Assembly (NCBI GenBank): GCA_963924565.1
Contig: OZ004613.1
Span: 6,634,001-6,698,000, forward strand
DNA from: Ascidiella aspersa
Lineage: Eukaryota
DNA: 64,000 nucleotides
Direction: 5' to 3'
In this document: one piece after another, positions 3,650-33,570 of the stretch
Layout: each line of letters starts with the position of its first letter
How positions within the stretch are numbered: position 1 is the stretch's first letter
Made by a program: the position numbers and the translations under genes
Notes under the pieces: model-generated
The model's database searches: none
Told to the model about the DNA's origin: nothing
Seen by the model: only the letters and a program-made list of their open reading frames with translations

Positions 3650-4403
3650 TTAAGCCATAAAACCACCAGTTAATTCAAGTGTCGCTCCATTGACGTAAGA
3701 GCTTTCATCACTTGCCAGGAACAAACAAGCATTCGCAACTTCGACTGGTTTTCCAAAGCGCCCCATCGGAATCATTTCCTTCAAAAATTCCAGTCGTGAT
3801 TCGTCAGCTTTACGTAGAAGCGGTGTATCAATTAAACCAGGGGAGACAGCTTTGCACCTGACACCGTATTCACCCACTTCAATGCACGTCGTCTTTGTAA
3901 AGGCGACCAGCCCGGCTTTACTAGAAGTGTATTCCGAGCCATTTTCAAATCCCACCTTTGCCGCTGTGCTGGCGATGTTAACTATACTTTTATCCAAGTT
4001 TAAGTCGCCGGAGAAACACCTTCGTAAAATTGAAGACGCCATTTAGGTTGACGTCCATTATTTGGTTGAACAAAGCCGTGGTCGTTTCGACGATCGGAGA
4101 CATACGATCAATACCAGCGCAGTTGACTAAAACGTTGCAATTCAGTCCAAAATGAGAGTTTGTAACTGCCAAGGCCTCTGACACGGAATTCTCTTCAGCT
4201 ACATCGCATTGAATCATCCCAACTATGCCTTGATATTTGGCATTCAACTTCTCGTAGGCAGCTTTGAAAGTTTCAACATTCAAATCCACCATCATGACTT
4301 TGCAACCTTCGGCCAAAAAGCGTTCGCAAATAGCTTCCCCGATGCTCCCTGCGGCTCCAGTGACAATGCCCACTTTGCCGTTTAACCTACCAACTTGTGC
4401 CAT
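3650..4403 (-). pseudogene. HSD17B8-like classical SDR, frameshifted
   Basis: TGAAGSIG, NCAG and YTSSK motifs split over two ORFs; about 20 nt deleted near 3988-3992 relative to paralogs, giving a TAA after RRLKLG. Confidence 0.85.
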
Positions 4404-12600: not shown

Positions 12601-15600
12601 CGAATACAATCGGACACAAAAGCCGCAAACACATCTGTGAGCGTAAATGTGCCATATTTAGTGCCATGCTTTAGGATGTAAGGTGCGACGGTTTTCGCAA
12701 ATATAGGAAGAAAGCATAGAGCTTTGGCAGCTGGGTTTTGACCAAGTGATTTTGTGACCTTCTCATAATCTTCTTTCTTCGGGCAAATTCGGCGAAAATA
12801 CATATCTTGAGAGCGTTCGTTGAAGCCGATTACCTTGACTACAAAGTGGGGCTTGCAACTTGGATGCAGCTTGTGCAATGCTCCTGGTCGTGAAGTGATG
12901 AGCTTGTGAGCATTGGGAAGAATGTCGCCACGGAGTAAGTTTTGTAGAATGACAACCGGCGTTGCGCGATCGTACAATCCGATCACTGGAGCATTCTTGT
13001 GAAGATTTTTGAACCTAGGTTCGTCCAAACCATCCAGGAAGATAAACAGCTTGTTGGATTTGGAAAGCCTTTCCAGTATTTGGTCATCTATTTCCTTTGT
13101 GTGTTTCCAGTTTGGGTTGGATGACAGCAATTCCAAAACGCCTATTTCTTTATTAAGATCTAAAGTCTTCAAGTATTTAAAAAGCCAATATCCTTCATCA
13201 TCTGCAGGTAATTTATCTACAAGCTCCTTTAGTGTCTGTATAATAGCTGTAGTTTTTCCAATTCCAGCTATTCCAGTCATACCGACCACGTTGCCATGCC
13301 TCTCCACGTAATCGTCATATGCTACTTGATTGCCAAATTGCTCACTTTGGGCTTTCTTTTTTGCTTCTTCTTTTGCAGCAGCAAATAGTTGATTGAGTTT
13401 AAGCATAGTGGAATTGACTTCGTTCTCCCGGAGTCGAGTCAATCCCAAGACACCAAACTCCTCTAATGCTGCTTGGAACTCCCGAATGATGTCAAGAGTA
13501 ACTGAGTTTCTTATTAGACTTCCGATGACCTTTTCAGCTGCTTTCTGGCATGCTTTTTGCCATAATGCTTCTAGCAATAAAAATGATATTTGAAAGCTTT
13601 CTTTAACGCCAAACAATTAGCTTTGAGAGCACACTTTTCTCACATTTGCTGGTTTTGGGCAAAATGCAGCTCACACAAAATTTTTGTTGTGGCTTTATCT
13701 GGAGAATAATGACCAAATTAATAGGGGTAATACTTTACATTAAAACTGTGTTTTTGTAACTGTATTTCTTCGTGATAAAGTGTGTTGTTTTTCAAAACAC
13801 CTAATTAAGTTAGTTTAGCCACGGCGATGTAACAATGCATTATAATTGCTTTAAATAACCCAAGCAAGATGCATTGCAATGCTTTTAAGAGCAAACTCTG
13901 TAAAAACTTATATTATAACTACCATTTGCAAGTTGCAACTATGTTATTTTCATTGGTAAAGTATTCACTGGGTATAGCCTATAACGTGACATTTTGCCTA
14001 ACTGCGTGATTAACCCAACCCAGCCACTTATCAGTTATTAATAATTAATTAACGCCCTTAAGTCGGTTTTACTTCAACGCGCATTACGAGCGAACGTTAA
14101 GCTAAAAATACGGGCCTGTTTAAGCGTAGGCTAGCCACACATCAGTTATTTTTTTCGGGTTTATGTAAAACCCTTTAAAATACACTTAGTTGATATTTTG
14201 ACATATCATAATAACAAACAGCTAAAAAAGACCCAAGAAAAACGAAACGCTAGGTATTTAGAGCATTGTTGGGTTCAAATCAGATATATACAACTATCTG
14301 AAACAAACACTAAAGTCGAGCTAAACCTAAAGCGATAAAACTTTTTTTAATGAGTTTTATTGCAGAAAAAGCTAAGTAATTTAAATTTTGCTATTTCTTA
14401 GACTGGCGGTCGGCAACCTCTTTCTAGTCACGAGCCTAAACCAAACTCACCCCAGCATGGTGGGCCGTACTGAATTTCTACAAACGATTTTGTAATACAA
14501 ACATGTGGCTTTTGAGCATTTAGTCATAAAAACTCTCATTTGTTGACTCAACCATGATTTTTTTGGCAAGTAAGTCTTATTATATGCGTTAAGTAAGTAC
14601 GTTTTAAATTATACGCGTAGTGCGTTAAGTTATACTGTTATTTAAGTTGAAAACAATTTAATTTGGAAGATGATGTGACGCATTGGGTACATCAAAATAC
14701 ATACTGCCTATACTCTTTTTTGATATGTATATCATAAACCTGAGATGTCCAACCCGCGGCCCGCCTGATATTTACGTGCGGCCCACCACTTATTGTCACT
14801 TTCAGTAGCCTTTAATTAAAACAATTGTTTAGAATATCATCAAAACGTGTAGAACGCTCAGTTTTTGATTTAGGCCTTATTTTATTTTTTCTAAGACTAT
14901 AATCGAGTCTAAAGTCGCATTTCAACATCCATCGAACACTTTTTGCACCCATCATTGCTAAGCAAGGTGGGTGTTTTTCTAAATGTGTGTTTTTGCGGAC
15001 CGCTTCAGGAAAATATATCAGCCCAAATATGTAAACTCAATTCTTCACGCTTTGCAATAATAAAAAAAATAATAATTGTGCTCGAGTTTACTCTCGAAGA
15101 GAGGGTGTTTAGAAGTTAAGTTAAAATATATCTATTTATTTTTTAAGTTGGCGCTAACCATTGTAAGATGAGGTCGCTGTTGAGTCTTGAGCCACTACCG
15201 GTACCTGTTGGTTGACAAGGTAATTAAAGACGTTGCCCACAACGTTGTCAATTGGGCCTCGATGACCGTAAATGTCACCAATGTTTACATTCGTGGCAAC
15301 AATTTGACGGTTGTCTGCTGGTGGAGCCTGAGCTGCATTTCCATTCTGTCCAAAACAAAAGTGTTGAAGTCAAATTCGTTGATTCGTTTATAACTGTTGT
15401 AACATTTTGTTTTATCATCAGCAATTATATAACTTTTAAAACAATGTTTATCTAAGGTAAAAAAAAGTCCACATTGGAATTATTTCTAATAGGTGTTCAA
15501 AACTATCACTTTTAATGAAGAAATCTTTAAAATTATTGCCTACATAACTTTTATCCCAAATAGACATATATTTACAAGTTGTAATCATCGGGAAAATGCT

Positions 15601-15702
15601 AATAGAATTCTATAATGAAATATTTTATCATTGTTGCATTGTAATCACCATATTTGGGTCGGGTTGATTTGCTTCTTCGTTTCCGTTAGGGATATCGGCC
15701 AT
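6657..15702 (-). CDS. NLR (NACHT-LRR) immune-receptor-like gene, 10 coding exons, about 971 aa
   Basis: Exons 15702-15649, 15345-15159, 13570-11847, 11487-11335, 10522-10370, 9840-9685, 8733-8572, 8355-8218, 7765-7655 and 6734-6657. All are GT-AG bounded and phase-compatible, summing to 2916 nt with no internal stop. Confidence 0.8.
7358..7571. mobile_element. hAT-type MITE in the last NLR intron
   Basis: TIR AGTGGTTCTCAACC / GGTTGAGAAACACTG with perfect 8-bp TSD CTATAGGG. Confidence 0.85.
8218..11487 (-). CDS. Five phase-0 LRR exons (153, 153, 156, 162, 138 nt)
   Basis: LxxLxL repeats such as IKRLWLNN, MNRLLLINC and MRKLNLSHNKLG; four exons end CCT|GTAAGT and begin after TGTAG. Confidence 0.88.
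11847..13570 (-). CDS. NACHT NTPase exon of the NLR
   Basis: Walker A GIAGIGKTT, Walker B LFIFLDGLDE, sensor LITSRP, LCFLP, winged-helix FIHLLWQEFF; acceptor TTGCTAG (phase 1), donor AAG|GTTTGT. Confidence 0.93.
15159..15345 (-). CDS. NLR exon 2: N/Q/G/V-rich segment with RHIM-like motif
   Basis: GACAG acceptor; open frame NGNAAQAPPADNRQIVATNVNIGDIYGHRGPIDNVVGNVFNYLVNQQVPVVAQDSTATSSYN; phase-1 donor G|GTTAG matches the NACHT exon phase. Confidence 0.75.
15649..15702 (-). CDS. NLR first coding exon, copy 1 (MADIPNGNEEANQPDPNM)
   Basis: CCAAAATGGCC start context, phase-0 donor GTGATT, upstream acceptor CTTACAG at 15735-15734. Confidence 0.72.
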
Positions 15703-16371
15703 TTTGGTTTTCAGTATAAATCGGTTTTACAAACTGTAAGTCTGTTCGTAAAGTTAAAAGTTTATTATTTATTAATTAATATCTAATGATTGTCTCCGAC
15801 AGATATATTAACATTTATGAAACCTAATTAGTACAAACGGGTATTTTTGTAGTTCAGGGCTGGCTAACCGGTCAGAGACCAAGAGCCGCAATCTTTCTTG
15901 TTTAACAAAAAAGAGACACGCCATACTTATGGCACAACAAAAAAATTACCCCATTTTTTTCTTACTTTTTGCGCAGCTATATATACCGGTAATATTGCAC
16001 ACTATACCACAAAGAGATGACCAAGAATTTTTGTTTTTGGGGGTAAGCATTTAAAAGATGACGCCATAAAGTAGTTATATTGACGTCATAATTTACGTTT
16101 CTGTCCCCTTTTAGACGTTGGCCGCTTTTTATTGTTTTTTGTTTTTGATTGTTTTTTTTACGGCCCGCCTATATTAAAACAATATAAAGAAACTTCGTTT
16201 AGCGCTAGGCATCCGACAGGCCGTTTAGTAGGGATCCTGAAGTTGGTGTACCAGGAAATCACTTCGCGCGAGGCAGGGTTAAGTTTCTAAGCTTTTTACA
16301 GAAAGCATGGCGTATGATTATATAAGTAGGGCAATTATGTTGCACTATATAAGAACAAATTATATTGAATT

Positions 16372-16411
16372 CTCGACAAGCTTTCGCGCAACCATGGTTC
16401 ATCAGGTCAAA
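16372..16411 (-). ncRNA. Hammerhead motif with disrupted stem II (HHR-A, unit 1)
   Basis: Core CTGATGA/GAAA retained, but stem II reads CCAT/GCGC (two mismatches). Confidence 0.45.
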
Positions 16412-18090
16412 GTACAAAAAAAATGTGATTACCCTATTCATAATTAGACAAATATGGCCTTTTACAAAGAATTATTGTATAAGGAGATGATTTTGGCAAA
16501 CCAGTTGTGAGTGATTTACAAATGCTGAATGGTTACAAAAAACATCGTATAAGTTTGATTTAGGGGAAGAAAATCGTAAAAATGTGTTACCGTTTTAAAG
16601 ACTGTGTTTTCCCCATCACACCTGCCACAAAGAAAACAAAATTCGCATTGATCTAGTTTAACTTCAAAATAAATGCCATTTTGCCATTAAGTATTGTATA
16701 CTCCGTTTCTCATGACGTCACTACAGTGGCCAAAAAAGCAATATAAATTAAATTAAAACGTCTAAAATCAACAATAAAATTGCGACAGATTGTTAAATGT
16801 AAAATAAGAAGAGTAAAAAAAACAGTAATTTTGCATGAGCGTAGCCAAGCCTTATTGTACAGCGTTTTAACAAAAATATTGAGACATGAAAAACCTATTT
16901 TACTCTTGAACAGGTTTTTCTTTCAATAAATTTATTTGAACGAGAATGTTTTGTCCTAATTCTGTAGCAACTTTAACATTCCATTTCACTTATTAAGATG
17001 TATTAAAATGATCTTATATGGTATTCGACTACTAGCTTAAAAACAATGCAAAGGCGACAACGTTCAAGATTTCAAGGTTATTTTGTTCAGACCAAACAAA
17101 TGCAATCAATAGGCCTATTTTTTTTTAATATTCACTCAATAAAAGTCACGTAGTCGTATAAAGTCCACCGAATGATTGTTGACACTTGGGTCACGTGGTT
17201 TACCTGGTTTAGGCCAGTGTTGCAACTAACAAAAGATATATTACAACTCGATTTTAGCATAAACACTACAGTACAATCTATTTAAGTTTAGAGAAAGAAA
17301 ATTTATTTTTAAATTTTAAAAATGCAATATTGTTCATTAACAGCAACACGATATTTCAGTCTTGGTAAATTTAATTTTCAATTGTTCAATCCAGGGCTGT
17401 AGAGTCGAAGCCGGACTCCGGACTTGACTACAAGAGTCCCAAGTCCGATGTGCGCATGCGCAGTAGCATGTTCTGAATTAATAAGACACTACACTGTAAA
17501 TGGTCGAATGGCTTCATATATGCTGTTTAAGCGATGAACTAGGTTTACCTTACCGCTTAAATCAGTTACTCTCAAACTTTGTGTATCAAGCCCCACTTAT
17601 CTTTTCAAAAACGTTCGCGGACGACAAGACTAAGATTTTTGTTTAAGGGTGACGTCACACGTTACATTATAACGCAACGTCATCAAACATTTAATTATAA
17701 AAAACCCGCGTTTGGTTGATTCACAATGGCAACACTTTTGATTTAAAAGGATACGTTATGCATTAGGTTAAAAAAAACACTCACATTTTCACCTAATTAA
17801 TGACATTTATTTTGCTTTGCTTAAAACGGACAAAACATAGTACAAACGGTTGGATGCTAGAAATATGTATTTATATAGTGAAGTTGACGAAAATGTTTGA
17901 GGTTAGGCCATCGCCCGGTGTTCTTCCTTCTAGGCCCAGCCCTGAACCCTACATTATAGTTTTTTTACAATTAACATCACCAGTTTTGTTGTGGGTGCAT
18001 TTTAAATAATAAGCGATGTTTCAATGAATACGCTGTTACTTCCTGGCATTGTTTTAATTATAAAATTGCTCTTCCGGCAAATATATGCAT

Positions 18091-18132
18091 TGTCCTGAAG
18101 AAGATTGTCCGAATGTGGTCGAAACGTTGGTA
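18091..18132 (+). ncRNA. Hammerhead-like motif HHR-B at the apex of a long hairpin (copies at 23049-23090 and 28075-28116)
   Basis: CTGAAGA...GAAACGTT with wobble-rich stem II GATTG/TGGTC; flanked by imperfect inverted arms spanning about 18049-18178. Confidence 0.5.
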
Positions 18133-20702
18133 TTTTCATAAAATTTTGCCGGTAGAACAATTTTACAATTAAAACATTTCTTGTGCAATAGTATTTTGAG
18201 AATTTAAACATTTACTATTTTGAATCACTGAATCAATAAAAACAGACTGCTTACTACTGTTAAAAGTACAACATTTTTATTTAATAAAACATATTTTAGA
18301 AAAAATGAAATAAAATTAAAATATGCCAATTTATGTTTTTACTGATTTAAATCGCACGACGGTATTCTAAAATGTTAATAGCACGAACTATACAGAGAAA
18401 AATGCTGTATAAATGCTGCATTTTGAAGAATTAAATCTCACTATGTTGTTCACCAGGTTTGAGTGGGGCGTGTTAACACTTTCAACAGTGGCGCGATATC
18501 CCCTTATTTGGGCACAACAGGTTGGTAGTAGGCAGTTCTTTTGTGTAATCAGCTTATCAGGGCATATAGGGCTAGCTAGCAGGCACCTTTTCGTAATTTT
18601 GCGGAGCCATCTTTTCGTGAATGCGTTATGACGCAAGCGAACATGACTGGCACTAATATATGAAGGCGACGGTTGCAAAAAGAAGCTAGCAAACATAATG
18701 TACTTGTCGCTGGTTATCGCGAAGCCTTGGGGGAGTCAGAAAAAGCACTTCACGTTGTTGTTTGTGGCTCAATTTCAACTCCATCTAATTGCTCGATGGA
18801 CTTTGTGTTGTCGCATTAAAGGGTTCCTGTGCGCTATTGCGAAATCTCTTTGCGTTGCCAATTAGGCCTCCGTGGTTGCTCAAGATAAAATAAGCACAAC
18901 ACATGGTTTAAAAGATGCAGCTTCTTAACGTCTGTCAGTTACATTTAAACTAACAGAGTCGCTCTAGGTATCCGTTAAGATTAGGGAACCCGCAACAGAC
19001 TTTAATTGATTACAAAGCAAAGTATTAATAATATGCAGTTGTAATTGTATAACTATATCGTTTAAAACCTTTTGTTCACTGACACTTTTCCGTTTAATAA
19101 ATTGCAAAGTTTAAAGTTGTGATCTTACCAAACTAATAGAACACATCAATAAACTTTGCAGATCAGCGCTCGCGAAAAATTTCACCCATAAACTCTACTG
19201 ACGTTACACTCAAATCGGCTCTCTACTGCCACAATAGGCCACGTTAGAGCGAAAACATGACAACGTTAAATGATGACGCATATACGTTTATATATGCAAT
19301 TAGTCGTTATACAAATTCCATTACGTACTTAATTCGCCTACGTCATGCTTTTCGTTTATTCGATAGTCTGGAAAACGCGCAAACGAGGGTTCATACAGCT
19401 CCTGAGTTATTTCATGTAACATCATTTCTGATATAAGCTGCTGCTACCAGGCTAAGTAATATAAATAAAAAAAGTCTCCTCTGGTACTTGTAATTCTTTA
19501 GTCACCCAGGCGAATGTGACTTGCATAGGTTGCCGAAACGTTGGTAAAGAATTACAATCATTTCCTACATCTTAGATGGTATTCGTATTTAGGGATGCGA
19601 TGCTCGATAATTTGAGCAAAACTAGCCGGTACACCGATAGCAAATGACGCCATTACTATAAGCTTATAATCAAAACTGTGGGCATTAAAACGTGCAAACG
19701 TAATGAGTCCGACTTGGGCATGTGAATACCAAATTACGAAACTCAAGGTCGTAAACTGATAATTGTAAAGGTGGAATAGCATATATGGCTGAATATTTTT
19801 CAACCATGTATTGTGGGTAAATGAACCTCCCATGGGTGAATTGCTGAATACACACCTTATTTGAATTACGTAAATTGGTGAAATACAGGCTGTAGAGGCG
19901 GAGTCGGACCCAGGTTAATTTTTTTAGCTGAAGTCGGACTCGGGTTATTCTTAACCGACTCTTATTCTTCGCACTTAAAAACAAACAAAAAATTAAGATA
20001 TTCTGTTCTATAAAACATTCAAACCGTTGTCCATACAAACTGCTGACTGTAAGCTATAACACAAGCTGTCAAAATACTTGTTTCAATTATAAAGATAAGG
20101 AGGTAATTCGGCTAATATATGTACTTAAAATATCTTGCGTGAATCCCTGAAAACTCTTTGGTCAACGGGTCTCAGTTTAAAACCGTTCAATTGAAAAGTG
20201 AAACCATTTTGTAGGCTACCATTTAAAGGCAAATATTATTTGGTAAAAGTAAAACTTCCTATATTTTATCAAATGGGGTTTGTTAATGTGACAGCTTGGT
20301 TATCGAATACGAAAACAGTACACAATATTTATCAACAGTGCCACATGACCGTCTTTTTTTACATACTGAAACGTTTGTTTAGTATAAATTTAATCAACTT
20401 TTGTTTGCACTTGGACAATGCTTAAACAATCCAAAAGTTACGTAGCGTAAGACAATGCTAAACACGTGCACTATGGTATAGTCAAAAAGTCCAACATGAA
20501 ACAACGTTTAACCAAGCTGTGTTTACACTGGAATTATTTTTAATAAGTGTTCAAAACTATCACTTTTAATGAAGAAATCTTTAAAATTATTGCCTACATA
20601 ACTTTTGTCCCAAATAGACATATATTTACATGTTGTAATCATCGAAAAAATGCTAATAGAATTCTATAATGAAATAGTTTGTCATTTTTGCATTTTAATT
20701 AC

Positions 20703-20756
20703 CGCATTTGGGTCGGGTTGATTTGCTTCTTCGTTTCTGTTACGGATATCGGCCAT
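20703..20756 (-). CDS. Duplicated NLR first coding exon, copy 2 (MADIRNRNEEANQPDPNA)
   Basis: Homologous exon in repeat unit 2 with intact ATG context, acceptor and GTAATT donor. Confidence 0.5.
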
Positions 20757-21281
20757 TTTGGTTTTCAGTATAAATCGGTTTTACAAACTGTAAGTCTGTT
20801 CGTAAAGTGTAAAAGTTTATTATATATTAATTAATATCTAATGATTGCCTTCGACAGATATATTAACATTTATGAAACCTAGTTAGTACAAACGGGTATT
20901 TTTGTAGTTCGTTAAGCATTTAAAAGATGAAGCCTTAAAGTAGTTATATTGACGTCATAATTTACGTTTCTGTCCTCTTTTAGACGTTGGCCGCTTTTTA
21001 TTGTTTTTTGTTTTTGATTGTTTTTTTTTACAGCCCGCCTATATTAAAACAGTTTAAAGAAACTTCGTGCAGGGCTTGGCATCCGACAGGCCGTTTAGTA
21101 GGGATCCTGAAATTGCTGTACCAGGAAATATGGCCTTATAAACTTATTAAATAGTGTAAATCGTTCGCGCGAGGTAGTCAGGATTAATTTTATAAACTTT
21201 TTACAGAAAGCATGGCGTATGATTATATAGGCTGAATAGGACAATTATGTGGCAATATATAAGAACAAATTGTATTGAATT

Positions 21282-21321
21282 TTCGACAAGCTTTCGCACA
21301 ACCGTGCTTCATCAGGTCAAA
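21282..21321 (-). ncRNA. Minimal type I hammerhead ribozyme, intact core (HHR-A, unit 2)
   Basis: TTTGAC-CTGATGA-A-GCAC(GGTT)GTGC-GAAAGCTT-GTCGAA: stems I and II pair, stem III is the palindrome AGCT. Confidence 0.7.
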
Positions 21322-24300
21322 GTACAAAAAAAATTTGTTTACCCTATTCATAATTAGACAAATATGGCCTTTTACAAAGGATTATTGTTGGCAAACCAGT
21401 TGTGATTTACAAATGCTGAATGGTTACAAAAAAAACATCGTATAAGTTTGATTTAGGGGTAGAAAATCGTAAAAGTGTGTTACCGTTTTGAAGACTGTGT
21501 GTTCCCAATTACACCTGCCACAAAAAACAAAATTCGCTTGATTTAGTTTAACGTGAAAATAAATGCCAGTGTATTGCTGTGGCTTATCAAGAGTCACTCA
21601 TGTCTAGGGTTGTTTAACATTTTGTTCTGATATCCACGGTTTTTGCAATAAGTATTGTATAGTCCGTTTCTCTGATAAATGACGTCACTACTGTGGCCAA
21701 TTCAACAATATAAATAAAATAAAAATGTCTAAAGATCCAAAATAAAATTGGGACAGATTGTTAAATGTAAAGTAAGAAGAGTATTAGACAATAATTTTGC
21801 ATGAGCGTAGCCTTTGTACAGCTTTTCAACAAAAAGAATGAGACATGGAAAACCTATTTTACGCTTAAATAGGTTATTCTTGCAATAAATTTATTTGAAC
21901 GAGAATTTTTGTCCTAATTCTGTAGCAACTTTTACATACCATTTCACTTATTAAGATGTATTTAAATGATCTTATATGGCATTCGTCTACTAGCTTAAAC
22001 ACAATGCAAAGGCGACAACGTTCAAGATTTCAAGGTTATTTCGTTCAGACCAAACAAATGCAATCAATATGCCTATTTGTTTTTAATAATCACTCAATAC
22101 AAGTCACGTAGTCGTATAAAGTCCACCGAATGATTGTTGACACTTAGATCACGTGGTTTACCTGGTTTAGGCCAGTGGTGCAACTAACAAAAGATATATT
22201 ACAACTCGATTTTAGCATAAACACTACAGTACAATCTATTTAAGTTTAGAGAAAGAATATTTATTTTAAAATTTTAAAAGTGCAATATTGTCCATTAACA
22301 GCAACACGGTATTTCAGTCTTGGTAAATTTAATTTTCAATTGTTCAATCCAGTGCTGTAGAGTTGAAGCCGGATTCCGGACTTGACTACAAGAGTCCCAA
22401 GTCCGATGTGCGCATGCGCAGTACCAAGTTCTGAACTAATAAGACACTACACTGTAAATGGTGGAATGGCTTCATATATGCTGTTTAAGCGATGAACTAG
22501 GTTTACTTTACCGCTTAAATCAGTTACTCTCAAACTTTGTGTATCAAGCCCCACTTATCTTTTCAAAAACGTTCGCGGACGACAAGACTAAGATTTTTGT
22601 TTGAGGATGACGTCACACGTTACATCATAACGCAACGTCATCAAACATTTAATTATAAAAAAACCCGCGTTTGGTTGATTCACAATGGCAACACTTTTGA
22701 TATAAAAGGATACGTTATGCATTAGGTTAAAAAAAACACTCACATTTTCACCTAATTAATGACATTTATTTTGCTTTGCTTAAAACGGACAAAACATAGT
22801 ACAAACGGTTGGATGCTAGAAATATGTATTTATATAGTAAAGTTGACGAAAATGTTTGAGGTTAGGCCATCGCCCGGTGTTCTTCCTTCTAGGCCCAGCC
22901 CTGAACCCTACATTATAGTTTTTTACATTTAACATCACCAGTTTTGTTGTGGGTGCATTTTAAATAATAAGCGATGTTTCAATGAATACGCTGTTACTTC
23001 CTGGCATTGTTTTAATTATAAAATTGCTCTTCCGGCAAATATATGCATTGTCCTGAAGAAGATTGTCCGAATGTGGTCGAAACGTTGGTATTTTCATAAA
23101 ATTTTGCCGGTAGAACAATTTTACAATTAAAACATTTCTTGTGCAATATTATTTTGAGAATTTAAACATTTACTATTTTGAATCACTGAATCAATAAAAA
23201 CAGACTGCTTACTACTGTTAAAAGTACAACATTTTTATTTAATAAAACATATTTTAGAAAAAATGAAATAAAATTAAAATATGCCAATTTATGTTTTTAC
23301 TGATTTAAATCGCACGACGGTATTCTAAAATGTTAATAGCACGAACTATACAGAGAAAAATGCTGTATAAATGCTGCATTTTGAAGAATTAAATCTCACT
23401 ATGTTGTTCACCAGGTTTGAGTGGGGCGTGTTAACACTTTCAACAGTGGCGCGATATCCCCTTATTTGGGCACAACAGGTTGGTAGTAGGCAGGTCTTTT
23501 GTGTAATCAGCTTATCAGGGCATATAGGGCTAGCTAGCAGGCACCTTTTCGTAATTTTGCGGAGCCATCTTTTCGTGAATGCGTTATGACGCAAGCGAAC
23601 ATGACTGGCACTAATATATGAAGGCGACGGTTGCAAAAAGAAGCTAGCAAACATAATGTACTTGTCGCTGGTTATCGCGAAGCCTTGGGGAAGTCAGAAA
23701 AAGCACTTCACGTTGTTGTTTGTGGCTCAATTTCAACTCCATCTAATTGCTCGATGGACTTTGTGTTGTCGCATTAAAGGGTTCCTGTGCGCTATTGCGA
23801 AATCTCTTTGCGTTGCCAATTAGGCCTCCGTGGTTGCTCAAGATAAAATAAGCACAACACATGGTTTAAAAGATGCAGCTTCTTAACGTCTGTCAGTTAC
23901 ATTTAAACTAACAGAGTCGCTCTAGGTATCCGTTAAGATTAGGGAACCCGCAACAGACTTTAATTAATTACAAAGCAAAGTATTAACAATATGCAGTTGT
24001 AATTGTATAACTATATCGTTTAAAACCTTTTGTTCACTGACACTTTTCCGTTTAATAAATTGCAAAGATTAAAGTTGTGGTCTTACCAAACTAATAGAAC
24101 ACATCAATAAACTTTGCAGATCAGCGCTCGCGAAAAATTTCACCCATAAACTCTACTGACGTCACACTCAAATCGGCTCTCTACTGCCACAATAGGCCAC
24201 GTTAGAGCGAAAACATGACAACGTTAAATGATGACGCATATACGTTTATATACGCAATTAGTCGTTATACAAATTCCATTACGTACTTAATTCGCCTACG

Positions 24301-24654
24301 TCATGCTTTTCGTTTATTCGATAGTCTGGAAAACGCGCAAACGAGGGTTCATACAGCTCCTGAGTTATTTCATGTAACATCATTTCTGATATAAGCTGTT
24401 GCTACCAGGCTAAGTAATATAAATAAAAAAAAGTCTCCTCTGGTACTTGTAATTCTTTAGTCACCCAGGCGAATGTGACTTGCATAGGTTGCCGAAACGT
24501 TGGTAAAGAATTACAATCATTTCTTACATCTTATGGTAGTCGTATTTAGGGATGCGATGCTCGATAATTTGAGCAAAACTAGCCGGTACACCTATAGCAA
24601 ATGACGTCATTACTATAATCTTATAATCAAAACTGTGGACATTATAACGTGCAA

Positions 24655-24919
24655 ACGACTTGCGCATGTGAGTACCAAATTACGAAAGTCGAGGTCGTAA
24701 ACTGATAATTGTAAAGGTGAAATAGCATATATGGCTGAATATTTTTCAACCATGTATTGTAGGTAGATGAACAGCCTATGGGTGAATTGCTGAATCCACA
24801 CCTTATTTGAATTCGGTAAATTGGTCAAATACAGGCTGTAGAGGCGGAGTCGGACTGAGGTTACTCTTTTTTTGGCTGAAGTCGGACTCCGGCTATTCTT
24901 AAACGACTCCGCAGCCCTG
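24655..24919. mobile_element. GGAGTC-repeat hAT-like MITE fragment; relatives at 17392, 19705, 22350, 27635, 30330 and an inverted copy at about 61405-61810
   Basis: End CGACTCCGCAGCCCTG, GAGTCGGACT repeats, internal sequence matches the reverse complement of 61540-61735. Confidence 0.6.
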
Positions 24920-25793
24920 GTTAAAAATACTACCACTTGACATCATCTATCGGCTAAGATCCGCTGATGTAGGACCTTCCTACTCATATTCATATATGGC
25001 TCAGTGGTCCTCAGACTTCGTGGGCATATTTTACTCCCTTAAAACAATTTACGTTCGAGCATTTACTTACAAACAAAGAAAAAATTAAGATATCCTGTTC
25101 TATAAAACATTCAAAGCGTTGCCCATACAAACTGCTGACTGTAAGCTATAACACAAGCTGTCAAAATACTTCTTTTAATTATAAAGATAAGGAGGTAATT
25201 CGGCTAATATATGTACTTAAAATAACTTGCGTGAATCCATGAAAACTTTTTGGTCCACCGGTCTCAGTTTAAAGCCGTTCAATTGAAAAGTGAAACCATT
25301 TCGTAGGCTACCATTTAAAGGTGAATATTAGTTGGAAAAGTAAAACTTCCTATATTTTATCAAATGGGGTTTGTTAATGTGACAGCTTGGTTATCGAATA
25401 CGAAAACAATACACAATATTTATCAAAAGTGCCGCATGGCCTGCTTTTGTTACATACTTCAACGTTTGTTTAATATAAATTTAATCAACTTTTGTTTGCA
25501 CTTGGACAATGCTTAAACAATCCAAAAGTTACGTAGTGTAAGACAATGCTAAACACGTGCACTATGGTATAGTCAAAAAGTCCAACATGAAACAACGTTT
25601 AACCAAGCTGTGTTTACACTGGAATTATTTCTAATAGGTGTTCAAAACTATCACTTTCAATGAAGAAATCTTTAAAATTATTGCCTAAATAACTTTTGTC
25701 CCAAATAGACATATATTTACATGTTGTAATCATCGAAAAAATACTAATAGAATTCTATAATGAAATATTTTATCATTGTTGCATTGTAATCAC

Positions 25794-25847
25794 CATATTT
25801 GGGTTGGGTTGATTTGCTTCTTCGTTTCTGTTACCGATATCGGCCAT
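25794..25847 (-). CDS. Duplicated NLR first coding exon, copy 3 (MADIGNRNEEANQPNPNM)
   Basis: Homologous exon in repeat unit 3 with intact ATG context, acceptor and GTGATT donor. Confidence 0.5.
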
Positions 25848-26561
25848 TTTGGTTTTCAGTATAAATCGGTTTTACAAACTGTAAGTCTGTTCGTAAAGTG
25901 TAAAAGTTTATTATATATTAATTAATATCTAATGATTGCCTTCGACAGATATATTAACATTTATGAAACCTAATTAGTACAAACGGGTATTTTTGTAGTT
26001 CAGGGCTGGCTAACCGGTGAGAGACCAAGAGCCGCAATCTTTCTTGTTTAACAAAAAAGAGACACGCCATACTTATGGCACAACAAAAAAATTACCCCAT
26101 TTCTTTCTCATTCAAACACTTAGTTTTTGCGCAGCTAAATATACCGGTAATATTGCACACTATACCACAAAGAGATGACCAAGAATTTTAGTTTTTGGGG
26201 GTAAGCATTTAAAAGATGACGCCATAAAGTAGTTATATTGACGTCATAATTTACATTTCTGTCCCCTTTTAGACGTTGGTCGCTTTTTATTGTTTTTTGT
26301 TTTTGATTGTTTTTTTTTACGGCCCGCCTATATTAAAACAGTATAAAGAAACTTCGTTTAGCGCTTGGCATCCGACAGGCCGTTTAGTAGGGATCCTGAA
26401 GTTGGTGTACCAGGAAATCATGTCTTAAGAACCTATTAAATGCAGTAAATCGTTCGCGCGAGGCAAGGTTAAATTTCTAAGCTTTTTACAGAAAGCATGG
26501 CGTATGATTATATAAGTAGGGCAATTATGTGGCACTCTATAAAAACAAATTGTATTGAATT

Positions 26562-26601
26562 CTCGACAAGCTTTCGCACAACCATGCTTCATCAGGTCAA
26601 A
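26562..26601 (-). ncRNA. Minimal type I hammerhead ribozyme, intact core (HHR-A, unit 3)
   Basis: As unit 2, with stem II GCAT/GTGC (one wobble). Confidence 0.65.
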
Positions 26602-29199
26602 GTACAAAAAAAATTTGATTACCCTATTCATAATTAGACAAATATGGCCTTTTACAAAGGATTATTGTTGGCAAACCAGTTGTGAGTGATTTACAAATGC
26701 TGAATGGTTACAAAAAAACATCGTATAAGTTTGATTTAGGGGTAGAAAATCGTAAAAGTGTGTTACCGTTTTGAAGACTGTGTGTTCCCAATTGCACCGG
26801 TCACAAGAAACAAAATTCGCTTGATCTAGTTTAACGTGAAAATAAATGCCAGTGTATTGCTGTGGCTTATCAAGAGTCACTCGAGTCTAGGGTTGTTTAA
26901 CATTTTGTTCTGATATCCACGGTTTTGGCGATAAGTATTGTATAGTCCGTTTCTCTGATAAATGACGTCACTACTGTGGCCAATTCAACAATATAAATAA
27001 AATAAAAATGTCTAAAGATCCAAAATAAAATTGAGACAGATTGTTAAATGTAAAATAAGAAGAGTATTAGACAATAATTTTGCATGAGCGTAGCCTTTGT
27101 ACAGCTTTTTAACAAAAATATTGAGACATGGAAAACCTATTTTACTCTTGAACAGGTTTTTCTTGCAATAAATTAATTTGAACGAGAATGTTTTGTCCTA
27201 ATTCTGTAGCAACTTTTACATACCATTTCACTTATTTAGATGTATTTAAATGATCTTATATGGTATTCGACTACTAGCTTAAACACAATGCAAAGGCGAC
27301 AACGTTCAAGATTTCAAGGTTAATTTGTTCAGACCAAACAAATGCAATCAATAGGCCTACTTTTTTTTAATAATCACTCAATGCAAGTCACGTAGTCGTA
27401 TAAAGTCCACCGAATGATTGTTGACACTTGGATCACGTGGTTTACCTGGTTTAGGCCAGTGGTGCAACTAACAAAAGATATATTACAACTCGATTTTAGC
27501 ATAAACACTACAGTACAATCTATTTAAGTTTAGAGAAAGAATATTTATTTTAAAATTTTAAAAGTGCAATATTGTCCATTAACAGCAACACGGTATTTCA
27601 GTCTTGGTAAATTTAATTTTCAATTGTTCAATCCAGGGCTGTAGAGTTGAAGCCGGACTCCGGACTTGACTACAAGAGTCCCAAGTCCGATGTGCGCATG
27701 CGCAGTAGCAAGTTCTGAACTAATAAGACACTACACTGTAAATGGTCGAATGGCTTCATATATGCTGTTTAAGCGATGAACTAGGTTTACCTTACCGCTT
27801 AAATCAGTTACTCTCAAACTTTGTGTATCAAGCCCCACTTATCTTTTCAAAAACTAAGATTTTTGTTTGAGGGTGACGTCACACGTTACATCATAACGCA
27901 ACGTCATTAAACATTTAATTATAGAAAACCCGCGTTTGGTTGATTCACAATGGCAACACTTTTGATTTAAAAGGATACGTTATGCATTAGGTTAAAAAAA
28001 ACACTCACATTTTGTCCGAATTAATGACATTTATGTTTTAATTATAAAATTGCTCTTCCGGCAAATATATACATTGTGCTGAAGAAGATTGTCCGAATGT
28101 GGTCGAAACGTTGGTACTTTCATAAAATTTTGCCGGTAGAACAATTTTACAATTAAAACATTTCTTGTGCAATAGTATTTTGAGAATTTAAACATTTACT
28201 ATTTTGAATCACTGAATCAATACAAACAGACTGCTTACTACTGTTAAAAGTACAACATTTTTATTTAATAAAACATATTTTAGAAAAAATGAAATAAAAA
28301 TTAAAATATGCCAATTTATGTTTTTACTGATTTAAATCGCACGACGGTATTCTAAAATGTTAATAGCACGAACTATACAGAGAAAAATGCTGCATAAATG
28401 CTGCATTTTGAAGAATTAAATCTCACTATGTTGTTCACCAGGTTGGAGTGGGGCGTGTTAACACTTTCAACAGTGGCGCGATATCCCCTTATTTGGGCAC
28501 AACAGGTTGGTAGTAGGCAGTTCTTTTGTGTAATCAGCTTATCAGGGCATATAGGGCTAGCTAGCAGGCACCTTTTCGTAATTTTGCGGAGCCATCTTTT
28601 CGTGAATGCGTTATGACGCAAGCGAACATGACTGGCACTAATATATGAAGGCGACGGTTGCAAAAAGAAGCTAGCAAACATAATGTACTTGTCGCTGGTT
28701 ATCGCGAAGCCTTGGGGGAGTCAGAAAAAGCACTTCACGTTATTGTTTGTGGCTCAATTTCAACTCCATCTAATTGCTCGATGGACTATGTGTTGTCGCA
28801 TTAAAGGGTTCCTGTGCGCTATTGCGAAATCTCTTTGCGTTGCCAATTAGGCCTCCGTGGTTGCTCAAGATAAAATAAGCACAACACATGGTTTAAAAGA
28901 TGCAGCTTCTTAACGTCTGTCAGTTACATTTAAACTAACAGAGTCGCTCTAGGTATCCGTTAAGATTAGGGAACCCGCAACAGACTTTAATTGATTGCAA
29001 AGCAAAGTATTAACAATATGCAGTTGTAATTGTATAACTATATCGTTTAAAACCTTTTGTTCACTGACACTTTTCCGTTTAATAAATTGCAAAGATGAAA
29101 GTTGTGATCTTACCAAACTAATAGAACACATCAATAAACTTTGCAGATCAGCGCTCGCGAAAAAATTCACCCATAAACTCTACTGACGTCACACTCAAA

Positions 29200-29837
29200 A
29201 ATCTTTCGTACGATCGATAAAACAAGCTTACTTTGAATCCTACCTCGTGTGATCACAACAAACCAAAACCACGTGGTCCAAAAAACATGGTAAAAGCAGC
29301 CTAGCAACCGTCACGCTTAGTCGCTTACGGAACCTTCTCTATCGTGCCTGTATTAGTTGTTTATTTAGTTTTTTGGCTGTTGTATCGTCCCCGCTCCATT
29401 CCGTTGCATTGTTATATTTTTGTTTCTGTTTGTTATACCCTTGTTCGTGTTTTATTGTATTGTTATCATTGTATTGTATTTAGTTATCATTGTAATTATT
29501 GTATTGTATGGCAAAGGTGCCATTCACAAATTGTGCCCCTTCTGTCGCTTATTTTGCACCGTTGCCCTTTTGTTTTTTGCTGTTTGTTTGTACCTCTTTT
29601 TGTTTTGTTTTTCTACAAAGGATGTTCACTGTTATAGCAGCCACTAATGTGGCCAAAATTATGTTGTTTCATTGTATTTAAATTTGTTTTTTAATGATTT
29701 AATTTGCCGTATACCTGTACATGTATTCTGATTATATTGCGGTCAGGGAGCGGCTGACTTTGATGACCTAACGGTCTTTCGCTGCTCCCTGGGAATCTAC
29801 TTCCCTAACAATAAACATATCTATCTATCTATATCTA
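29200..29837 (+). mobile_element. 5'-truncated non-LTR retrotransposon (CR1/L2-group-like), unique to unit 3
   Basis: Absent from units 1 and 2; TCAAA duplicated at both ends; ORF tail KSFVRSIKQAYFESYLV*, T-rich 3'UTR, stem-loop CAGGGAGC..GCTCCCTG, AATAAA then (TATC)n tail. Confidence 0.85.
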
Positions 29838-30117
29838 TCAAATCGGCTCTCTACTGCCACAATAGGCCACGTTAGAGCGAAAACATGACAACGTTAAATA
29901 ATGACGCATATACGTTTATATATGCAATTAGTCGTTATACAAGTTCCATTACGTACTTAATTCGCCTACGTCATGCTTTTCGTTTATGCGATAGTCTGAA
30001 TAACGCGCAAACGAGGGTTCATACAACTCCTAGAGTTCTTTCATGTAACTTCATTTATGATATAAGCTGTTGCTACCAGGCATAGTAATAAAAATAAAAA
30101 ACGATTTCCTCTGGTAC

Positions 30118-30187
30118 TTGTAATTCTTTAGTCACCCTGACGAAGGTGACTTACATAGGTTGCCGAAACGTTGGTAAAGAATTACAA
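30118..30187 (+). ncRNA. Minimal type I hammerhead ribozyme, intact core (HHR-C, unit 3); core-mutated copies at 19488-19557 and 24447-24516
   Basis: CTGACGA-A-GGTGAC(8 nt)GTTGCC-GAAACGTT; extended stem I TTGTAATTCTTTA..CC / GGTAAAGAATTACAA; units 1 and 2 read CAGGCGA. Confidence 0.68.
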
Positions 30188-31226
30188 TCATTTCCTATAT
30201 CTTAGATGGTAGTCGCATTTAGGGATGCGATGCTCGATAATTTGAGCAAAACTAGCCGGTACACCGATAGCAAATGACGCCATTACTATAATCTTATAAT
30301 TAAAACTGTGGGCATTATAACGTGCAAACGACTTGCGCATGTGAGTACCAAATTACGAAACTCAAGGTCGTAAAGTGTAAATTGTAAAGGTGGAATAGCA
30401 TATATGGCTGAATATTTTTCAAACATGTATTGTGGGTAAATGAACCGCCTATGGGTGAATTGCTGAATACACACTTTGTTTGAATTACGTAAATTGGTGA
30501 AATACAGGCTGCAGAGGCGGAGTCGGACTCAGGTTACTCTTTTTTTGGCTGAAGTCGGACTCCGGCTATTCTTAAACGACTCCGCAGCCCGGGTTAAAAA
30601 TACTACCACTTGACATCATCTATCGCCTAAGATCCGATGATGTCGGACCTCCCTACTCATATTCATCTATGCATCAGCGGTCCTCAGACCTTGCGGGCAT
30701 CTTTTACTCTTAATGTACGTCCGAACATTTACTTACAAACAAAGAAAAAAATAAGATATCCTGTTCTATAAACATTCAAACCGTTGCCCATACAAACTGC
30801 TTACTGTAAGCTATAACACAAGCTGTCAAAATACTTGTTTTAATTATAAAGATAAGGAGGTAATTCGGCTAATATATGTACTTAAAATATCTTGCGTGAA
30901 TCCCTGAAAACTCTTTGTCCATCGGTCTCAGTTTAAAACCGTTCAATTCAAAAGTGAAACCATTTAGTAGGCTACCATTGAAAGGCGAATATAATTTGGT
31001 AAAAGTAATACTTCCTATATTTTATCAAATGGGGTTTGTTAATGTGACAGCTTGGTTATCGAATACGAAAACAATACGAAATATTTATCAACAGTGCCAC
31101 ATGACCTGCTTTTGTTACATACTGAAACGTTTGTTTAATATAAATTTAATCAACTTTTGTTTGCACTTGGACAATGCTTAAACAATCCAAAAGTTACGTA
31201 TTGTAAGACAATGCTAAACACGTGCA

Positions 31227-31312
31227 CTATGGTATATCAAACGGTCCAACATGAAACTATGGTATAGTCAAAAAGTCCAACATGAAACTATGGTATAGTC
31301 AAAAAGTCCAAC
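31227..31312. repeat. About 31-bp tandem repeat x3 at the outer end of the triplication
   Basis: CTATGGTATAGTCAAAAAGTCCAACATGAAA units start at 31227, 31257 and 31288. Confidence 0.85.
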
Positions 31313-33570
31313 TTGTTTAACCAATCAGAGTTTAACCTTTCTACATCGGAAAGCACTGCCAACTTAAAATAATTTCATCAACCTGCAACCAAAGTGGAAG
31401 TGAATAGAACCGATATTTGCAATCTTATTGGTAGCCTATATAAATTTATCATTGCCTGGAATACACCACATAATTACTACTTAGGACAAAATTACAACAA
31501 AACGACCATCAAATCAAGTCACGCAGAAAATCCAAGCTTGACCAAGTTTCCTACGAATAACAACAAACCTCGCAAAATCTAAGCTACCTTTCTTAAATAA
31601 GTTAAGCTTTGTACGTCAGTATTAGAGCTGCCAATCAGACAAGCATAAGATTACACTGTTTATTTGTAAATAGTTTTGATTTCGGTAAAAAAGCAACGTT
31701 TAAGTTTGAATAACACTACATTTCTAAATAAAACTTTTGCAATATTAAGAAAACATTTTCAACACTTCTACGAACAACAGTTATGCTTATAATATTACAT
31801 AAAATATTAGTATTACTTCTACTGACAGTTTTCATGCTGAAACACCATCAAGATCCGTCGAATTTGTTCTGGTAAACTCTTTTTTCTCTCTATAGACTCT
31901 AGCAACACAAAGCTTCTTTTGCTCCACCATGTGGCTAACGTTTGGCGGCCGTTATACAGCTTCAAACGGGCCGAGTAAATTTTGTGACGCGAAAAAAACT
32001 TCTGTCTGCCGCGCGACGCTTTACAACGGTCGCGTGATGTTTAGTTTGTGTCGTGTGCCGCTTCAAAAAATTTCGAGGAGGGGGATAATATAGGGCAGTG
32101 TAGTGCTTTTTAATCTTTCAAAAAAACGTTCGAACTTTGTTATTTCGGAAAATTGTCATCCGCACAAAACAGGCACAGTAAGTTTGCAACCTGCAGTTTT
32201 CCCGATTTGTAAAAAACAATGAACGGGTTGTTTATTAAAACTGTGAGCCTTAACCGATATAAAATAGATAGCTTAAGCTGCAAAGAACCACCGAGGGACT
32301 ATATTATTGATTACTGTACTACACATAATTAAAATATTAATATGCACCATTTTTATCCGCACATTTATTCGCACGACGTTTGTCATCCGCATTAGAAAGT
32401 GCATACTATCCCACGGGTTAAACAACACTGATATATGGTATACAAAAATAATATTTTAACGGATTTATTTAGTTAGAATTTCCTCACGTAAAATCTAACT
32501 TAAGTTGCTGATGGTTCTTTGCCTGGTGGTCGGGGCGTGCAACATAATGGGCTATTTATATGACTGCTTCTAAATCGATCGGCTTCATAATTTGGGCCAC
32601 GCTTTGTGCCTTATGTAAGCAGCCGGCCGTTTTGGAAGCGGCCATTGAAACTGGCCGATTCATGTTGAGCAAAACGAATTGAAGCCGCCGAAGCAAACGC
32701 AATCAGTTTGGTGCAGAATAAGCCGTAAGCAATCACACGAGAAAGCATTTGATCATCAGCTGAGCTAGTTGTGTTGTGCTATGCTATGGTTTACCTCTGT
32801 GATGAAGTTTGCTTCTGTTAGAGCTGTAGGTTTACTTTTACAAGGTACAGTATATGTTAAAAATTTTAAAATGCGACAAACACCATTTTTTCCAGTAATT
32901 ATTGGAATAAATGATTATAACGGGCGTTGCACAGGCTAACACAGTGTTAACCATTCCAAATATTAAAGTATAACAAATTTACAGGAAAACACGTGTCTTT
33001 TTGAGCACTGAGTGAGTTGAAAATGACGATAGTTGGCGAAAAACAACAGCAATAACAATTAACAAAGCTATAACAGAGGCTGTGGCCTAAAAATTTTTTG
33101 ACTTGTTGTAAGGTATCATTGCGTGCTTTTTGAGCTGTTCACAGTTTTGAGCTAGATACGAAGCAAGACAATTTTTGTTAAGGTTAGCAAAACGTGTGAG
33201 TTTAATAGGATCGGTATTTATTCTCGATAGTTTTTATATATAAAATGTGTAAAAGTATTAAAAATAAGTTATTAATAGTTATTTCATTTACAATCTCGCG
33301 CCCTTCAAATAGTTTATAGTTTTATTTTAACTGCTGGTGTTCTAATTTGTTGAAGATCACTTTAAAATCCCTTCATTACAGGACCTTTTTACGTGTGTTC
33401 CCTAATGCAGCTTTAATTTTTTTTATCGTGAATCACTGCAAAGTGCTGAGTTATTTAACATGATCAGCCGAAGGTTATTCGGATTCCTTCAGTGCGAGGC
33501 CTCTAAGGTTTATTGCTGTCGATTTGCACACGGGAACAAAAGCTACATGGCTAGAAGGTTTCTAACATAT

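Follow-up and report, generated by a model that had tools for sequence, protein, structure and literature searches.

The window, the whole 64,000-nt stretch of DNA analysed here, contains an NLR immune-receptor gene on the minus strand, probably of a sea squirt and a member of a large tandem family with at least 111 NACHT matches in the genome. Its gene body comprises the following features.

15159-15345, minus strand: exon 2, a 62-aa N/Q/G-rich peptide with a conserved N-I-G-D...I..v.G core
11847-13570, minus strand: NACHT-WH-HD2 exon (Pfam NACHT, E 1.5e-15; NOD2_WH, E 1.6e-7)
7806-11487, minus strand: five LRR-like exons, labelled LRR by eye, and a short last exon
11487-11335, 10522-10370, 9840-9685, 8733-8572 and 8355-8218, minus strand: the LRR-like exons as predicted
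from 7817, minus strand: the short last exon as predicted

The predicted open frame, read from the proximal ATG exon (exon A), is intact and 912 aa long. The NACHT and NOD2_WH matches lie above the Pfam cut-off and the HD2 match (E 8.6e-7) below it. The five LRR-like exons are Leu-rich and mostly similar to each other, and a Pfam scan of one of them alone gave no match. No death-fold domain was found; a low-complexity peptide of 80 residues makes up the N-terminus. Excerpts of a report on lineage-specific invertebrate NLR expansions (PMC8662601) likewise describe large tandem families with NACHT, LRR-like repeats and N-termini outside the vertebrate classes, although the low-complexity N-terminus sets the present gene apart from those described there.

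The three upstream units

Upstream of the single intact gene body, self-BLAST reveals three direct tandem units of ~5 kb with 94-96% identity. Each carries upstream DNA and an ATG exon, confirming the arrangement proposed in the sequence-only reading.

15471-20524, minus strand: unit A, proximal and at the original position (self-BLAST; contig bridge to the gene body)
20525-25615, minus strand: unit B (self-BLAST)
25616-~31334, minus strand: unit C, distal, terminating at a 31-bp minisatellite (self-BLAST)
29200-29837, strand unassigned: young dispersed mobile element of 638 bp, in unit C only, with 47 genome matches

The duplication breakpoint falls in the intron that separates the ATG exon from exon 2 (acceptor 15345). 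It had been placed in intron 1; the position stands, but the ATG exon carries an acceptor of its own, and the intron is not truly the first. In the assembly, the A/B and B/C junctions are identical in sequence at the join. A-, B- and C-specific sites account for 107, 87 and 84 of the 282 variable columns and are arranged in runs, and the sharing of sites among the units forms a mosaic compatible with no single tree. We count the common junction and these runs in favor of unequal crossing-over. Unit B lacks 171 bp that are present in unit A at 15856-16026, leaving a gap ~150 nt upstream of the B ATG; many of the genome matches of the mobile element in unit C are full-length with 96-99% identity. 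We read the deletion in B and the insertion in C as marks of decay. The block 18050-19214 is less variable among the units (19 variable columns in 1165, versus 263 in 3393); constraint was rejected as the cause because a contig of a second sample is ~6% different there, and recent homogenisation is likelier. Rfam gives no match within 15400-33500, and the window as a whole contains no tRNA.

Copy number was checked against the contigs of a matching DNA run (X1). The run possibly derives from the very sample that was assembled, and therefore bears on copy number and not on independence. The X1 contig 15013-15504 connects the gene body to unit A with 0 differences. The contigs have a depth of 21-33 where the sequence is single-copy, of 54 over a stretch that includes the part shared by A and B only, and of 78 in the block present three times, a pattern compatible with three real copies. 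It is very doubtful that haplotypes were joined head-to-tail in the assembly. The between-unit divergence of 4-6% does resemble the ~6% separating second-sample contigs from unit A, and the units are supported by contig depth rather than by reads across all of them; against this, depth rises in steps of ~1:2:3, the X1 gene-body contigs show 0 differences, allelic or otherwise, over 7.9 kb, and three distinct units are more than two haplotypes can supply. The contigs of another run, X3, which is apparently exon-biased, come mostly from paralogs and carry no information on this allele.

ATG exons and upstream elements

The three ATG exons are similar, in tandem, in one phase and upstream of shared constant exons.

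15649-15741, minus strand: ATG exon A, acceptor 15741, ATG 15702, 18 codons, phase-0 donor; boundaries predicted
20703-20795, minus strand: ATG exon B, ATG 20756; boundaries predicted
25794-25886, minus strand: ATG exon C, ATG 25847; boundaries predicted

The peptides previously quoted for the three exons were recovered at these ATGs, and the claim that acceptor and donor are retained also held: ATG, acceptor, donor and open frame are kept in all three. The acceptor lies 39 nt 5' of the ATG and is identical in A, B and C, the 39-nt leader is free of variable sites, and the donors read ATG/GTGATT, GCG/GTAATT and ATG/GTGATT. Because this acceptor is conserved across the NLR family, the ATG exon is not a true first exon; if the acceptor serves trans-splicing, however, the mature mRNA could begin with this exon after the leader. 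In paralogs, the exon encodes 4, 9 or 18 residues, a short peptide rather than a specificity domain. When copies are joined in series, a stop is predicted after 22 codons with the acceptor at -39 and after 33 with the one at -31.

The exons differ at six nucleotides in codons 5, 7, 15 and 18, all of them amino-acid-changing as previously noted, including the change R5P unique to exon A. Their variability (6/54) is comparable to that elsewhere in the units (276/4504; p 0.15). Six nonsynonymous changes out of six have p 0.16-0.28 under drift, and we agree with the earlier caution that they are too few to prove selection. Under the family constraint (pN/pS 0.28), the same outcome has p 0.025, or 0.086 when counted as four codon events. 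The pattern thus appears ordinary for drift and atypical for a constrained exon of this family (p ~0.03-0.09), a departure that fits relaxation and also diversifying selection.

The ATG exon is single in 43 of the 44 genes where our models detected one, with 0 repeats among the 43 paralogs. Direct repeats of at least 1 kb occur in 7/59 NLR flanks and 5/40 control stretches; at 500 bp or more the counts are 17/59 and 6/40 (p 0.15), and NLR flanks were not shown to be richer in 5' duplications than the background. Two kinds of non-coding element accompany the exons.

31800-32070, minus strand: p1, candidate promoter, single-copy, family-conserved, CpG-rich, outside the units
18660-19310, minus strand: module p2-p3 copy A, family-specific and non-coding, one base altered in a site that we take to be CRE-like
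23618-24268, minus strand: module p2-p3 copy B, intact
28645-29938, minus strand: module p2-p3 copy C, split by the mobile-element insertion

Element p1 occurs once in 26/60 genes and never twice, at a distance of 3-17 kb on the 5' side of the ATG exon, with 0 matches in 40 control stretches of the genome. Its CpG observed/expected ratio is 1.48, versus 1.02 for the window, and no conserved splice donor is evident in it. The best promoter candidate of the locus, it is single and stands outside all three units. Matches of p2-p3 are confined to NLR 5' flanks (24/24). Six paralogs carry 1, 2, 2, 2, 2 and 4 copies with one ATG exon each, so that the module is repeated in 5/6 of them. The copy in each unit is a candidate regulatory element and could even hold a promoter of its own. 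The proposal of a promoter-dosage amplification is accordingly plausible for this non-coding module, present per unit and tandemly repeated in paralogs. Two other patches were set aside as elements: 16090-16231, considered as a proximal promoter, is a dispersed repeat, and 32097-32260 is present in control stretches too.

Origin and possible use of the duplicated exons

On balance, we think it probable, by a modest degree, that the tandem triplication of this 5-kb 5' segment of one NLR gene is a recent product of unequal crossing-over in which the ATG exon was carried along as a passenger. Transcription would start upstream at the single p1, and the productive mRNA would contain exon A, joined to a leader exon in cis or to a spliced leader in trans, the latter as happens in many ascidian genes. 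Exons B and C would be redundant and drifting. Any effect would fall on the expression level, via extra p2-p3 copies or upstream short frames, and not on receptor specificity. Several observations count against the passenger reading: the splice signals and open frames kept in A, B and C with an invariant leader, the all-nonsynonymous changes in a constrained family, one of which is unique to exon A itself, the p2-p3 module in every unit, and the lack of an evident conserved donor in p1, whose promoter role is itself putative. Read as a passenger duplication, the locus is an ordinary structural variant within a fast-turning immune gene cluster.

The closest precedent is the partial tandem duplication of PEP1 in Arabis alpina, in which, by the excerpted account (PMC3527215), a coding 5' exon was likewise duplicated together with the DNA upstream of it and part of the intron that follows, all in front of a single gene body, and which varies in copy number among accessions. 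In PEP1, exons 1a and 1b are genuine first exons, proven by cDNA and with their start sites mapped, whereas the NLR locus has three copies with an acceptor on the exon, and is known here from genomic sequence alone. Working alternative starts of the PEP1 kind are an unlikely but serious alternative. As one joint proposal, every unit would be transcribed, from its own p2-p3 or proximal site or with a spliced leader at its own acceptor, some transcripts would be spliced directly onto exon 2, and the three N-termini would be alike in function, with an effect on the amount or tissue of expression. The intact splice signals and the restriction of p2-p3 to NLR 5' flanks agree with it, as do the joining of both PEP1 exon-1 copies to one exon 2 (PMC3527215, in part) and SL trans-splicing in about half of Ciona genes (PMC4691747). 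However, transcripts from B and C would be expected to include the intervening acceptor-bearing exons and stop early; a donor upstream of a trans-splice acceptor leads to cis-splicing in C. elegans (cited in excerpts of PMC3074122); and the module of C is split while B has lost its 171 bp near its exon. A further reading, an array of trans-splice acceptors that serve as variable first coding exons, in which a spliced leader is added at any of the three ATG exons and each is joined directly to exon 2, is decidedly improbable; if true, it would give alternative N-termini without separate promoters, adjoining an amyloid-like motif, in a large ascidian NLR clade of a lineage reported to be RHIM-less.

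The early stops could also mean a weakened allele, which we regard as rather improbable: p1 read-through would be spliced C-B-A-exon 2, with two short upstream frames preceding the productive ATG and the protein lowered or abolished. The position of p1 upstream of all units and the predicted serial splicing suit this proposal, but the gene body is an intact frame, and the upstream exons would be bypassed if transcripts were trans-spliced at exon A or began there. The sequence-only reading had suggested variable first exons like those of clustered protocadherins or UGT1A. A selected array of that kind, with three peptides of different signalling properties, is highly unlikely. Like UGT1, GCNT2 and the clustered protocadherins, the locus has tandem similar 5' coding exons of the same phase and shared exons downstream; in those systems, as excerpted (PMC1885805), each variable exon is exceptionally large, codes for a recognition domain, is served by a promoter of its own and has been conserved between species, whereas the NLR exon has 18 codons, bears an acceptor, and is repeated in one gene, probably as a polymorphism. 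The excess of nonsynonymous changes and the adjoining candidate amyloid motif speak for the array. It is opposed by substitutions indistinguishable from drift, a tiny exon of 4-18 residues across paralogs that is repeated in none of the other genes among the 44, the conserved acceptor with early stops on serial inclusion, and promoters that are candidates at most for each exon, the best of them single and outside the units. The triplicated locus is a natural test of how a duplicated acceptor-bearing ATG exon is spliced in a trans-splicing chordate; use of the distal exons, if it occurred, would make the locus a variable-exon array of very recent origin, arisen otherwise than through promoter choice.

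The exon-2 peptide

The peptide of exon 2 resembles an amyloid motif and is a candidate for fibril formation. A conserved N-terminal exon of this appearance is found in 60/60 main-clade NLRs. The core is V-N-I-G-D, or M-Q-I-G-D in 2/17 aligned. Excerpted accounts of RHIM, PP and BASS3 (PMC4262963, 10.1101/2020.01.06.895854) describe a similarly short G/N/Q-rich NLR N-terminal motif replacing a folded effector domain, but the G-phi-Q-phi-G signature of those motifs is absent from exon 2. No RHIM match for exon 2 was found in Pfam or PDB, and tunicates apparently lack RHIMs, according to part of one report (PMC4262963). Atlas, PDB and representative searches with exon 2 returned nothing credible (best atlas score 0.83); a match to a designed TPR (E 0.0015) and matches to 12 long proteins, through multiple weak stretches, were rejected. 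A RHIM-like string upstream of one second-clade gene was attributed to chance, with no counterpart at other loci. A single-protein search of limited reach gave 62 genome matches to the peptide, among which no effector partner with the motif was found; 61 lie beside NACHT genes, and the remaining one is ~6 kb upstream of another NACHT-like frame. This side lead may matter more than the triplication.

Three tandem 5' units and one gene body

Self-comparison of the window divides the 5' region of the focal NLR gene into three units in direct orientation, with 94-96% identity across the long matches:

15471-20524, minus strand, unit A, proximal to the gene body
20525-25615, minus strand, unit B
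25616-about 31334, minus strand, unit C

In every unit the minus strand encodes an ATG exon of 18 codons, whose ATG falls at 15702 in A, 20756 in B and 25847 in C; the tandem arrangement and the three encoded peptides are as the sequence-only reading had described them. The join sequence is identical at the A/B and B/C junctions. Unit B has lost 171 bp close to its ATG exon, and unit C has gained a 638-bp element, near-identical copies of which occur across the genome. By the predicted exon joins, the reading frame of exon A stays open through exon 2 (15345-15159), the NACHT exon and the LRR-like exons, for a predicted protein of 912 aa.

Copy number was assessed from assembled run contigs with depth rather than from reads, contig depth being a crude measure. 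We took the two runs, X1 and X2, to be DNA runs from their size and coverage rather than from a record, and X1 is possibly the assembly's own sample. Four X1 contigs totalling 7.9 kb, at a depth of 26-33, match the gene body with 0 differences, and an X1 contig runs from the gene body into unit A. The X1 depth is 54 across a stretch containing the part found only in A and B, and 78 in the block common to all three units. These depths and the match to the body are consistent with three genuine copies and with the absence of another, divergent haplotype for the gene body; none of the contigs listed bridges a unit junction. The contigs of X2, another sample, differ from unit A by about 6%. One of them matches unit A over 650 bases, ending at 20517; beyond that point its sequence is dissimilar where the junction would be, which weakly hints at a single unit in X2.

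Splicing and variability of the ATG exon

In the paralogs where an ATG exon was found, it encodes 4, 9 or 18 residues, and its ATG is preceded by an acceptor at a distance of roughly 40-65 nt. Because of this acceptor, the ATG exon should not be a first exon: either a non-coding exon would precede it, or the acceptor would take a spliced leader. Protocadherin variable exons are skipped since they are without acceptors. The acceptor retained in the three units counts against the proposal that they form a nascent variable-first-exon array, because two ATG-exon copies joined in series are computed to reach a stop after 22 codons, or after 33 with a second possible acceptor. Trans-spliced genes are put at about half of the total in Ciona (PMC4691747), and in C. 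elegans cis-splicing results when a donor is put in front of a trans-splice acceptor (as cited in PMC3074122). UGT1-type clusters are described as having large domain-coding exons, each with a distinct promoter (PMC1885805); two features of such clusters fail at the focal locus, the large domain-coding exon and the first-exon position. The closest known case is PEP1 of Arabis alpina, a partial tandem 5' duplication of the promoter, exon 1 and intron 1 in which both exons are reported to be spliced to one exon 2 (PMC3527215). The focal locus is a partial 5' tandem amplification, real but ordinary, and a variable-first-exon role of its ATG exons appears unlikely.

All the variable codons (5, 7, 15 and 18) do change the amino acid, as had been noted, and the six variable nucleotides are all nonsynonymous. 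Nonsynonymous sites make up ~81% of the exon, and the chance of six in six is 0.28 (0.16-0.20 with transition bias), or 0.29-0.43 when four codon events are counted. Variability in the exon does not exceed that in the remainder of the unit (6/54 against 276/4504 variable columns, p 0.15), and at least five variable columns are seen in 29% of windows of 54 columns. One comparison weighs against the ordinary reading: in the five 18-codon paralog exons that are intact, leaving out that of locus L034 with its stop, pN/pS is 0.28; under this family pattern the p value is 0.025 for six of six and 0.086 for four of four. Since six of six is unlikely under that pattern, constraint seems to be lifted among the units, which would be consistent with redundancy and also with diversifying selection. 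D15 is common to A and B, R7 is common to B and C, and the unit-specific sites cluster in runs, which points to recombination or conversion among the copies.

The 18-codon ATG exons of L034 and L035 (G000:C7, about 2921700 and 4194350) have an in-frame stop at codon 7, and the two loci match each other closely despite their 1.27 Mb separation. The next NLR gene, on the minus strand, has a family-type ATG exon at window position 48. A second, unrelated ATG at 321 on the same strand is followed after 18 codons by a phase-0 GTAAGT donor, which may be chance.

Repeated modules in the NLR family

The genome (308.6 Mb, 75 contigs) contains at least 111 matches to the NACHT exon, 59 of them, the focal one included, at 77% identity or more: a large NLR expansion. 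The matches lie mainly at 0.3-6.65 Mb of contig C7, also on C3-C6 and C8, and the 59 closer ones are mostly 20-60 kb apart. We found no published account of this family or locus in the mostly open-access literature on ascidian NLR expansions, including PMC8662601.

The 5' flanks of 60 main-clade genes, one with a broken NACHT and outside the match list, were compared together with those of 11 genes from other clades; main-clade flanks extend 8-27 kb upstream, ended by neighbours in the local cluster. Direct repeats of at least 500 bp occur in 17/59 NLR flanks versus 6/40 control stretches chosen at round-number positions (p 0.15, with paralogs not independent), and repeats of at least 1 kb in 7/59 versus 5/40. 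Direct-repeat duplications of these lengths are common in this genome.

A family-specific non-coding module, p2-p3, is present in each unit, and its genomic matches are all at NLR 5' flanks (24/24). Six paralogs hold 1, 2, 2, 2, 2 and 4 copies (those of two paralogs are identical and not independent), with one ATG exon apiece. The ATG exon is single in 43 genes, threefold in the focal gene and undetected in 16, possibly because the models overlook another type of exon there. Because p2-p3 is repeated in paralogs while the ATG exon stays single in those 43 genes, the recurrent repeat in the family is the non-coding module, not the ATG exon. The focal p2-p3 copies cluster as their own clade; the focal amplification is therefore separate from those of the paralogs. 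A further CpG-rich element, p1 (31800-32070), lies outside the focal units. It occurs once, never twice, in 26/60 genes, where the ATG exon follows it at a distance of 3-17 kb, and 0/40 control stretches contain it; no conserved splice donor is evident in it, and p1 may be a promoter.

At L044 and L091 (G000:C7:4035400-4040700), four tandem p2-p3 copies precede a paralog whose ATG exon is single, and other NLR subclades have different NLR-specific upstream modules repeated. L075 and L076 (G000:C7:5142000-5152400) form a tandem duplicate of 7.4 kb that takes in the ATG exon, exon 2 and NACHT, 99.96% alike across the 2.5 kb compared; a stop interrupts the NACHT match in one of the copies. SDR dehydrogenase copies without introns, about a dozen and in either orientation, occupy 3653-4403 and 35543-63465 of the window, five full-length and uninterrupted and the remainder frameshifted or partial. 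The best named relatives of a neighbouring SDR gene are from the ascidians Clavelina, Ciona and Styela. Together with a cellulose synthase match in the genome that passes the Pfam cut-off, CesA being a tunicate marker, this makes an ascidian host likely.

The exon 2 motif

Exon 2 was found in 60/60 main-clade genes, and in 17 aligned peptides (alignment A1) certain N, G-D, G, I and G positions do not vary. It is N/Q/G-rich, its G-D-[IV]..G core is pseudo-repeated, and it sits at the NLR N-terminus where a death-fold domain would be expected. In fungal and bacterial NLRs this is the place of amyloid signalling motifs, and exon 2 may be a candidate motif of this kind, as a lead only. It lacks the G-phi-Q-phi-G (RHIM) signature of amyloid motifs (10.1101/2020.01.06.895854), and has no RHIM match in Pfam or PDB; tunicates are described as apparently without RHIMs (PMC4262963). 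No non-NLR partner with the motif was present among 62 genomic matches. At L113 (G000:C6:31280324-31288000), the motif is followed after ~6 kb by a divergent NACHT-like frame, and the interval contains retroelement-like fragments.
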